Shown here: one piece after another, positions 20,896 through 26,450 of the stretch
Layout of the letters: each line of letters begins with the position of its first letter
Position numbering within the stretch: position 1 is the first letter of the stretch
Source of the DNA: Pecten maximus
Taxonomy: Eukaryota
Direction of reading: 5' to 3'
DNA length: 64,000 nucleotides
NCBI RefSeq assembly: GCF_902652985.1
Contig: NC_047024.1
Span: 10,912,001 to 10,976,000 of the forward strand
Made by a program: the position numbers and the translations under genes
Notes under the pieces: generated by a model
Told to the model about the DNA's origin: nothing
Seen by the model: the letters and a program-made list of their open reading frames with translations, nothing else
Databases searched by the model: none

Positions 20896-21078
20896 AATAT
20901 AATTTTATCCGTTTACGGTATTAGGATGAAATTATTTTCTCCTTTGTATGTTTACGCCAATAGGTGGCGTTGTGTGTATATTTGCACGTGCGAGTGGTGC
21001 AAATATCGGCCTACACGTGGTCGTACCTGGGTTGGTCATTCAGGCGACACAGGTAGCGGTGTGTACACGTGAAAATTT
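20896..21078 (+). repeat. Split direct repeat A1
   Basis: 183 bp; I see one mismatch versus A2 (cctttgtatg / ccttggtatg). Confidence 0.95.
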
Positions 21079-21113
21079 TGTCTCCGTTTGTACAGTGTAA
21101 ATTATCTAATTTA

Positions 21114-21827
21114 ATGGAAGTCGACACAGAAGTTTCTACTGAGAAGTCAGCGGAGGTTTCCCTCAACGACATTTTAAGTCAGCTGAAGGACCAGAAACGG
21201 GAGCTTAGAAGTTATTTGGACTCCAGGCTGTCAGTACTTGATAAAACTCAAGATGTTTCTAAGCAAGTTCAAAAGTTGAAGGAGGAAAAAGACACAGTTT
21301 GGAAGCGTGAGGGAAACAAAGAACAGTTTAAGTTTAATTCAGAAATTTTAGAGGAAGTTCAACAGGTTCTATGGGCTGTTAATTCCGGTAAAACGGAGTA
21401 CTCGGTTGAACTTCTTGAGGAGTTAACATGTAAGCTGACTAGGCGTAACAAGTTAATCCGGATAGCGGACACTTCTGAGGCTGGTTGGGGAGCGGTTAAG
21501 GAATATGTAGCTAATCCATTAGCGAGTGATTCTGATGACGACCGGAAAATAGCTAGAGCGGACAGCAAAGCAGTTAAAAGGCTGAAAGATAAGAAGAAAA
21601 AGACAAAGGACACTAAACGTACACGTACAAACGGGTATAACTATGGGAGACCCAGTTTTGCTACGGGCTCGGCAGGACAAGATAGTTATGTTCGTCCTAT
21701 CTCTGATAGTGGGAAGCAGCTTTTTCGTGGCCAACAGAGTTTCGGATCACGAGGATGTTTCGGGTGTGGTGAATTCGGCCATATCCGGAGAGACTGCCCA
21801 AAGATCTCCAGGCCCGGAAATTCCTAA
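21114..21827 (+). CDS. gag: Gag-like protein with C-terminal CCHC zinc knuckle
   Basis: First ATG at 21114. WKREGNKEQFKFN, RNKLIRIADTSEAGW...EY...LASDSDD, and CFGCGEFGHIRRDC. Confidence 0.9.
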   Translation: MEVDTEVSTEKSAEVSLNDILSQLKDQKRELRSYLDSRLSVLDKTQDVSKQVQKLKEEKDTVWKREGNKEQFKFNSEILEEVQQVLWAVNSGKTEYSVELLEELTCKLTRRNKLIRIADTSEAGWGAVKEYVANPLASDSDDDRKIARADSKAVKRLKDKKKKTKDTKRTRTNGYNYGRPSFATGSAGQDSYVRPISDSGKQLFRGQQSFGSRGCFGCGEFGHIRRDCPKISRPGNS

Positions 21828-24826: not shown

Positions 24827-25891
24827 ATGCATATATATAACGATTTTAATATTCGATTTTCTTTTTATTTTATACGATTAGTTTCATATGCCTTGCGGGA
24901 TGAGTACGCTATGGTACCGGAGCATCTTAAAGAATTAGCTTTGGGGGTCCCCGACCTTCTTCAGAGCTGTAAAGCTGACAGTACGGTTAGAAAGTATTGC
25001 TACGGATTCTTACGCTGGCGGAAGTGGGCTAATCAGAATCATTTCGAGGAGGAAAACATCTTTCCCATAAAGCCATTTCATATGTGTATATACTTATCGT
25101 TTTTGGTGAAAAACAATGCAAATATTGGTTCTTTGTCAGATGCTATGTATGGCGTTAAATGGGCGCACGATATAGTGGGGAAAATATCTCCTACGATGTC
25201 CCTGTTAGTGAGGAATGTGTTTGAGGGAGCGAAAAGGTTATTAGCTAAACCGGTAAAGAAGAAACAGGCAGTTACTATTTCAATTCTTCAGAATGTTTAT
25301 GATAAAGTTTTTGATAAAAACAATCTGTATAATCAGAGAACTATTACTATGTGTTTATTGTCTTATGCAGGTTTCATGAGGAGCGCAGAGGTACTCGCGT
25401 TAAGGAGATCAGACATACAGATACGCGCATCCCACATGGAGATTTTCGTGGAGCACTCCAAGACTGATGTATATCGTGATGGTTCGTGGATCATTGTGAG
25501 TAGGATATGTGGTTCCCGATTGTGTCCGGTGGGTAATTTCGAATTATATTTGAAGTTAGCATCTATAGTGGATGATTCCGAGGGGTTTGTGTTCAGGAAT
25601 CTCACTAGGTTGAATACAGATACATATGTGTTAAGAAAGTTAAATAAGCCCATGACATATTCGAGGTTCAGGGAGATTTTTATGGAAACGTTTTCTTCAG
25701 TGGTTCCGGATATTAAGAAGTTTGGTTTGCATAGTCTTCGTGCTGGAGGAGCATCAGCCGCAGCTAATGCGGGGATACCGGATAGATTATTCAAACGGCA
25801 TGGACGATGGAAGTCGGAAACAGCCAAAGATGGCTATATTGAAGACAATTTTCGCGAGCGGTTGAATGTTTCTAGGCATTTAAATCTGTAA
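24827..25891 (+). CDS. Tyrosine recombinase (true start may be 24911 or spliced)
   Basis: Catalytic set: GFMRSAE (R), SKTD (K), HSLR (H-x-x-R), HGRW, and DGY (Tyr nucleophile). Confidence 0.95.
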   Translation: MHIYNDFNIRFSFYFIRLVSYALRDEYAMVPEHLKELALGVPDLLQSCKADSTVRKYCYGFLRWRKWANQNHFEEENIFPIKPFHMCIYLSFLVKNNANIGSLSDAMYGVKWAHDIVGKISPTMSLLVRNVFEGAKRLLAKPVKKKQAVTISILQNVYDKVFDKNNLYNQRTITMCLLSYAGFMRSAEVLALRRSDIQIRASHMEIFVEHSKTDVYRDGSWIIVSRICGSRLCPVGNFELYLKLASIVDDSEGFVFRNLTRLNTDTYVLRKLNKPMTYSRFREIFMETFSSVVPDIKKFGLHSLRAGGASAAANAGIPDRLFKRHGRWKSETAKDGYIEDNFRERLNVSRHLNL

Positions 25892-25978
25892 ACGTTTTTC
25901 CTAGGAACTTTTTTATTTTATTTAGGTCATGTTTCTCCGGGGCTTCTCAATATCGGACTCTTGCCCGTTCTTTATTCT

Positions 25979-26450
25979 TCATGCGGTACCTCTGTCGCTG
26001 TGAAATACATTCACGTGTTTTCCTATTGGATAATTTAAAGGAGAAATATAATTTTATCCGTTTACGGTATTAGGATGAAATTATTTTCTCCTTGGTATGT
26101 TTACGCCAATAGGTGGCGTTGTGTGTATATTTGCACGTGCGAGTGGTGCAAATATCGGCCTACACGTGGTCGTACCTGGGTTGGTCATTCAGGCGACACA
26201 GGTAGCGGTGTGTACACGTGAAAATTTGTTTTTTTTTTTTTTTTTTTTGTGGGTTAGGGTGATGTTAAAAAGTATGTAATTGATCTTGAGTATGTACATC
26301 TCGTTGAGCAGGCATTAAATATTGCCTTCTGTATACATATGTATTATATATGTGTTTGATTTCATTAAAATCATGCGGTACCTCTGTCGCTGTGAAATAC
26401 ATTCACGTGTTTTCGTTATCTTTATCCTATTGGATAATTTAAAGGAGAAT
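25979..26450 (+). repeat. 3' terminal block B1-A2-spacer-B2
   Basis: B1 and B2 are identical apart from 12 nt missing in B1; B1 abuts A2. Confidence 0.93.

Follow-up and report, generated by a model that had tools for sequence, protein, structure and literature searches.

Organization of the element

The window analysed here, a stretch of 64,000 nucleotides of contig NC_047024.1 of Pecten maximus, holds a whole retrotransposon encoding a tyrosine recombinase (YR), the features of which are listed in Table 1 in positions of the window. Its parts follow in the order A1, gag, pol, array, YR, B1 A2, spacer and B2, and its plus strand is G/T-rich. The gag frame is open over 21057-21827, and a profile search finds a CCHC knuckle in it (PF00098, 23.4 bits against a cut-off of 20.8). 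The catalytic residues of pol are YLDD for the reverse transcriptase (RT) and D-E-D-D for RNase H, and YR carries the set R196-K223-H313-R316-H336/W339-Y348; the three open frames with RT, RNase H and YR catalytic motifs, claimed in a preliminary description of this DNA, are thus borne out. Realignment also agrees with that description in that A1 (20896-21078) and A2 (26045-26227) differ by one mismatch in 183 positions. The word "intact" used there holds for the frames but not for B1, where the copy in the window lacks 12 nt found in its own B2 and in all six full-length siblings, either a true gap or an assembly error. The array between pol and YR gives a weak hint of an internal promoter region for YR, and a polypyrimidine tract with AG is located near 24860-24881, inside the YR frame region. 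In the surroundings, a 147-nt tandem repeat (2.8 copies, 20216-20650) adjoins the host repeat entered by the element, and a 36-nt satellite of 93 copies occupies 26752-30102, with related units near 19722-19868.

Table 1. Features of the element and its target in the window
Feature	Position	Strand	Remarks
Whole PAT-like element, 5,553 bp	20897..26449	+	bounds from host-repeat copies without insert, equal to left plus right flank
A1 repeat	20897..21078	+	T at 20945 private to A1 of the window copy
gag-like ORF from first ATG	21114..21827	+	CCHC knuckle at C-terminus
pol frame, stop to stop: RT, RNase H, MT	21586..23865	+	first ATG 21643; overlaps gag
MT domain, PCIF1/CAPAM-like fold (structure model)	23398..23862	+	motif I DWFAS at 23476; degenerate motif IV NPPV at 23596
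45-nt tandem array, 12.2 copies	24202..24744	+	non-coding, between pol and YR
Tyrosine recombinase frame	24794..25891	+	catalytic set complete; in-frame ATG at 24911
B1 repeat	25979..26045	+	12 nt shorter than B2; gap at about 26020, outside hairpin
Junction hairpin	26038..26093	+	predicted recombination site
Hairpin helix 1	26038-26045 with 26086-26093	+	predicted fold
Hairpin break	26045|26046	+	5' edge of 5-nt side
Hairpin centre	26046-26050 opposite 26082-26085	+	5-nt side opposite 4-nt side
Hairpin helix 2 and loop	26051-26059 with 26073-26081; loop 26060-26072	+
A2 repeat	26046..26227	+
B2 repeat	26371..26449	+	right end of element
Target host repeat (high-copy), left part	20659..20896
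Same target host repeat, right part	26450..26659		2,664 first-look candidates in genome

Classification

The element has split direct repeats (A1-B1A2-B2) with the internal pair downstream of YR, a methyltransferase (MT) domain after RNase H, and YR on the strand of pol and downstream of it. This layout shows no difference from that of the echinoderm-form Pat1-like elements (SpPat1 type; order DIRS, PAT-like), which, in the text available from two papers, have split repeats after YR, a CCHC gag and MT, and are known from sea urchin, Lottia and Nematostella (PMC4157794, PMC3266345); the same portions of text make no mention of a junction hairpin, a zero-homology break or a target motif. A tree of RT-RNase H was built from 43 loci, all of which were kept and which do not include the named PAT/SpPat1 references. 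There the element falls among 33 elements with split repeats and MT that form one clade (99/97). The nine DIRS1-like elements from this genome are a separate clade (100/99), and one MT-less element stands on a long branch apart from the element's clade. A DIRS1-like assignment is rejected, as the element has neither inverted terminal repeats/ICR (the repeat comparison gives direct repeats only, with no terminal inverted pair) nor a trinucleotide core common to junction, ends and target; an Ngaro-like one is rejected by the presence of the MT domain. On the whole, the element is a new, young member of the known PAT-like group, and ordinary as such.

The genome holds at least 20 PAT-like families, several DIRS1-like ones and one Ngaro-like family with near-identical repeats, together with several long YR frames having no RT nearby, which are possible Cryptons (L227-L231, L234-L236, L238). 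Three metagenome loci (L115, L118 and L155) carry the internal repeats between MT and YR, i.e. the nematode-form layout, and belong to the same clade with the same 5/4 hairpin.

The methyltransferase-like domain

When the C-terminal 156 aa of pol are scanned alone, they match the Dam family with 29.8 bits (cut-off 28.1). The structure model of the domain (pLDDT 92.5) has its best structural match in PCIF1/CAPAM (6irx, 6irw; Z 11.9, rmsd 2.7 Å over 140 residues), with Foldseek E values of 3e-4 to 5e-4 and TM of 0.66-0.69, so that the domain proposed in the preliminary description has both HMM and structural support. Sequence searches of solved structures returned nothing for the MT profile or for the YR protein, and a fold search with whole pol returned RTs only. 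The catalytic consensus of PCIF1-clade N6-adenine methyltransferases is [NDS]PP[YFW]. The element's domain, of 155 aa and fused to RNase H, shares the fold of the cap adenosine N6-methyltransferase PCIF1/CAPAM but lacks this consensus, reading NPPV. That reading had been singled out earlier; it is confirmed at aa 671, and yet is not informative, as N is the first residue of motif IV in only one database protein out of 120 and in one translated locus out of 55, which is the element of the window itself. Actually, nearly all relatives read [VC]PP[VIP], with N, D or S in 1 of the 55 rows and an aromatic fourth residue in none, and D-x-F of motif I is invariant in all 55. NPPV as a sign of special or retained activity is therefore rejected, the relatives' motifs making it a family quirk. 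Conservation is 0.62 for MT, 0.64 for RT and 0.49 for the tether; MT is nearly as conserved as RT, which fits a binding role. The domain is a conserved PCIF1-like fold, probably without catalytic activity, which would serve to bind nucleic acid or protein. The preliminary description had called its function unsettled, which is largely answered in print: the accessible part of Iyer et al. (PMC4738411) derives the MT of DIRS1 from PCIF1 and considers it likely inactive.

Copies, age and expression

The copy search covered the 918-Mb genome of the window, where 40 of 209 candidates were scored and counts are lower bounds. It gives at least seven full-length copies including the window copy, to which the six siblings are 99.7-99.9% identical, as well as at least three interrupted copies and at least two solo A-spacer-B copies. 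Between the seven full copies, pairwise identity is 99.6-99.9% (7-21 substitutions in about 5.55 kb), and all three frames are open in five of them. Together with the split repeats, the MT domain and the RT-RNase H tree, this supports the earlier view of a very young, potentially active PAT-like element. The flank of a further insertion, L006, is found empty elsewhere in the assembly at 97% identity, representing an allele or a close paralogue. Named protein relatives come mostly from bivalves, and once from amphioxus. The solo copies L021, L022, L072 and L073 have the same ends as full elements, and may have arisen either by A1 x A2 recombination or by integration of a mini-circle excised between two junctions. 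L023 is rejected as a solo element, having 1,500 of 1,500 flank bases in common with L006 and hence being the same locus.

Of 24 public runs listed, belonging to 11 studies, 20 contain element sequence, whole or in part. Three runs that are guessed to be RNA have contigs covering the element nearly completely, and the single run on record as RNA (n = 1) covers it patchily. In two of the guessed-RNA runs the contig that spans the array and YR has a greater depth than that of pol (95 vs 21; 89 vs 42), but not in the third, and DNA runs are flat; these depths give a weak hint of a separate YR transcript. Most families (loci L159-L212) have a polypyrimidine tract and CAG directly before the YR homology and often miss an early Met, for which reason YR in most such families is probably spliced; the window family and L063 have an in-frame Met at YR instead. 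The four sequencing runs examined for a splice joint of YR contain none. Joins 26448->20896 in runs X7 and X12 were rejected as proof of circles, because the internal B1|A2 junction, identical in sequence, yields the same join and would confound an inverse PCR on B2-A1 as well. Apparent empty-allele joints for the window insertion in other runs are uninterpretable, its flanks being a high-copy repeat.

Ends, empty sites and target motif

In 12 insertions of the family, the first base of the left end and the last base of the right end are constant, and the two ends sum to the B1|A2 junction with zero overlap. The flanking base is A, C or T at the left end and varies among all four bases at the right end, which refutes AAT as a terminal signature; its occurrence at the ends of the window copy is due to chance. 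Empty sites of six insertions consist of left flank plus right flank with no duplication. For the window copy, 13 of 19 host-repeat copies are exact, and the others have small deletions or are misaligned. Empty sites were also obtained for L003, L006 and L008, and those of L002 (6/6) and L007 (6 printed of 7 fetched) again equal left plus right flank, with zero bases common to target and junction at the break; for L005, a second copy of the flank is absent from the genome. Homology-based integration via the AAT triplet, as first envisaged, is refuted by these empty sites.

Over 56 insertions in 20 families, the target consensus is A-K-A-W|N, with A at -2 in 43, G or T at -3 in 46 and no preference at +1. 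At the cut, target and junction have no base in common in 20 of the 56, and three or more in 10. Families with C at -1 show C in just 3 of 17 targets, so the target motif is a preference and not homology; on the same count, a minus-strand model using the target motif as homology is disfavoured.

A conserved hairpin at the junction

Folding prediction gives a hairpin for the B|A junction (z = -5.3), and none of 200 shuffled sequences folds as well. When B is left off, the left end gives no fold (z = -0.9), and hence the stem requires B joined to A. In the window family, the centre is able to pair down to a single bulge. The survey of this hairpin took in 60 further YR loci of the genome and 80 metagenome loci, and 47 copies have a mappable junction (six were dropped beforehand for damaged or collapsed ends), 39 of them with clean ends. 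For 36 of the 39, a blind search for helix-5/4-helix hits the interval compatible with the ends, and for three it misses by 1 nt; in 17 of 21 families, no 5/4 site anywhere in the element scores higher than the one at the break. In these 21 families, 303 of 336 pair cells are Watson-Crick, against 185 ± 11 (maximum 227) for arms swapped between families, counted on an alignment fitted to the hairpin geometry and in families that are related. On a plain, unfitted MAFFT alignment of 18 families, RNAalifold gives helices of 8 and 9 bp on either side of a 5/4 loop, the break falling at a helix edge, and 14 of 17 pairs are compensatory with changes on both sides. Geometries with a one-base excess on the cut strand (4/3, 5/4, 6/5) score 14.5-15.0 of 16, and symmetric or reversed ones 11.4-11.6; loop size is not exactly fixed, 6/5 scoring as well as 5/4. 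A at -2 of the junction is invariant in the 21 families, with no conserved triplet. G-T mispairs exceed A-C by 12 to 2, in families which are related and have a G/T-rich plus strand.

In the MT-less, Ngaro-like family of L237 (6 left and 6 right ends), geometry and break are the same, with a loop of 3 nt, and L151 has a symmetric 5/5 centre. For the metagenomes, a score of 14 after YR is reached in 13 of 44 testable loci, with 0/44 for the control and 6/44 for the 5/5 geometry; the other 31 have no strong site after YR, and some of these misses are collapsed assemblies, as seen for L120. An Rfam search gave no match. Judged by sequence comparison, the hairpin is real as a structure and conserved in the 21 families and the MT-less Ngaro-like family, and its covariation fits folding of DNA or of RNA alike. 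A junction hairpin or a comparison with attC for such elements was not found in the searchable literature, including the available text of PMC7192593, PMC6681497, PMC9210276 and PMC13465315, a coverage that excludes key older papers; the portion of PMC8876359 available holds nothing further on the hairpin.

In the DIRS1-like elements L220, L222, L224 and L226, the circle junction is contained in the ICR, whose reverse complement also folds. L220 has a 5/4 site at the junction with minus-strand polarity, and the other three have a 5/3-like site. In the DIRS1-like group, the same site may be used on the first-strand cDNA.

Position of the break

The break lies on the 5' arm in 18 families and on the 3' arm in three counted families and further loci of the same clade (95/96), where the loop lies in B. 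In both arm types the plus strand is cut where the 5-nt side has its 5' edge, the cut in single-copy families being placed from ends and structure together. The whole 5-nt side is found at the left end, with an intact B end, in 46 of 47 copies, and at the right end in 0 of 47. Two strand exchanges across a heterologous spacer would leave about half of insertions with the spacer at the right end, and the count at the right end therefore speaks against two exchanges. With inverted sites in a duplex, the crossover would be expected in the loop that separates the arms; a break within one arm makes sense only if the strand is folded. Of 56 junctions, 53 are located after YR and three in duplicated or tandem loci, and no free-standing permuted copies occur among the 56, though every element has an identical internal site.

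Proposed mechanism

Taken together, we consider it probable, at about 0.6, that the B|A hairpin is the attachment site of YR, with one strand cut at the helix edge and a single exchange into host DNA. The RNA would be reverse transcribed, with B1|A2 templating the closing of the B2|A1 junction, as in the published model. The plus (sense) strand would then fold, single-stranded or as a cruciform, and the two helices would be occupied by YR monomers. Cutting would take place on the strand that carries the 5-nt side, at the 5' edge of this side, the 3'-phosphotyrosine staying on the helix; according to the available text of PMC3458562, cleavage by tyrosine recombinases produces a 3'-phosphotyrosine, and it is the 5'-OH side that is exchanged. 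The host strand would be cut after A-K-A-W with no homology required 3' of the cut, and the resulting junction would be resolved by replication or repair, as in integron attC x attI/attG. This scheme does not explain how the plus strand is freed or why permuted copies from the internal B1|A2 are lacking, and it counts against it that the break polarity indicates the plus strand, first-strand cDNA being the minus strand.

Of the other readings, a role of the hairpin in the RNA or in reverse transcription (packaging, priming or strand transfer) is unlikely, though the likeliest of them. Such a role would fix the ends, and a classical double-stranded circle would integrate by two exchanges with biased repair of the mismatched spacer. 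The covariation and the G-T pairs fit sense RNA equally well, the loop often keeps the motif GTTTGA...GAATTAG, and, in the accessible text of PMC7192593, a 3' hairpin has been proposed for DIRS-1 and the primer of DIRS-order elements is described as unknown. However, it predicts neither a YR-sized site (two 8-9-bp arms and a 5-nt spacer), nor a break at the same border despite the arm switch, nor a target motif mimicking the helix end, nor the 0/47 copies with the spacer on the right end.

We regard as quite improbable, and less probable again than the RNA role, that the same folded site acts as a cruciform extruded from a double-stranded circle, or joined from linear cDNA, with no single-stranded circle. 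An imperfect 21-bp stem with a 13-23-nt loop extrudes poorly without supercoiling, which counts against it. It would account for the use of the plus strand; attC sites can recombine via cruciform extrusion (PMC3458562), and DIRS-1 cDNA is mostly linear (PMC7192593), as far as the available parts of these papers go. A double-stranded circle recombining at an AAT triplet common with the target, for which AAT near both ends of the window copy and the triplet cores in print for DIRS1-like elements would speak, can be practically dismissed, since the empty sites are 2 nt shorter than it requires, those of L002 and L007 already refute it, and among the 56 insertions 20 have no base in common with the junction and just 10 have three or more.

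Significance and comparison with known systems

What is new here is a conserved folded site with a fixed break and an arm switch, the structure being real and the mechanism on it inferred. Generalizing from it, we see about even chances that split-repeat YR retrotransposons (PAT-like and Ngaro-like), and perhaps DIRS1-like ones on the opposite strand, integrate like integron cassettes, through a folded strand with a 5/4 centre and a single homology-free exchange into A-K-A-W that host replication resolves. If true, this would be a eukaryotic case of structure-specific single-strand recombination, in which one lineage switched the cut between the hairpin arms; it would extend folded-strand tyrosine recombination, as in integrons and Xer-dependent elements, to animal genomes, and would offer a compact, scar-free, homology-free insertion chemistry. 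As the hairpin specifies substrate, cut position, strand and target motif, the model is directly testable. The standing model for YR retrotransposons is a double-stranded circle at a shared triplet, while the sole experimental study, in its available text, found single-stranded cDNA (PMC7192593).

Compared with Ngaro-like elements, the element shares split direct repeats, while the former have no MT and a long separate RT branch. With DIRS1-like elements, such as DIRS-1 of Dictyostelium, it shares RT-RNase H-MT and YR, but these have inverted repeats and an ICR, and a core of 2-4 nt that is duplicated (PMC7192593). In the same partial text, the cDNA of DIRS-1 is single-stranded and mostly linear, and the specificity of its YR is described as untested; such single-stranded cDNA would provide a foldable substrate.

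The closest comparison is with integron attC. The element differs in being a eukaryotic retroelement with its own RT, in having no conserved base 3' of the cut, and in that one clade cuts the loop-side arm. Two attC features are absent: the two or three extrahelical bases near the L box, for which the element has a one-base asymmetry of the centre only, and the conserved AAC triplet, for which its families share just the A at -2. In the available sections of PMC5027507, the cut in the bottom strand of attC follows an A that closes the outer box on its inner side, and an unpaired centre of 5-6 nt comes next; for attG, the accessible text of bioRxiv 2022.09.11.507474 shows single cleavage by the same homogeneity argument and gives the motif GWT. 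A short target motif occurs in both systems, GWT of attG being A-W|C on the cut strand beside A-K-A-W|N for the element. As in attC (PMC5027507, PMC3458562, in part), the element has an imperfect hairpin of two boxes or helices, between which about 5 nt stay unpaired, and a loop that varies, the hairpin being kept in structure and free in sequence. Also as in attC, the cut follows an A, and there is only one crossover point, located where one box ends on its inner side.
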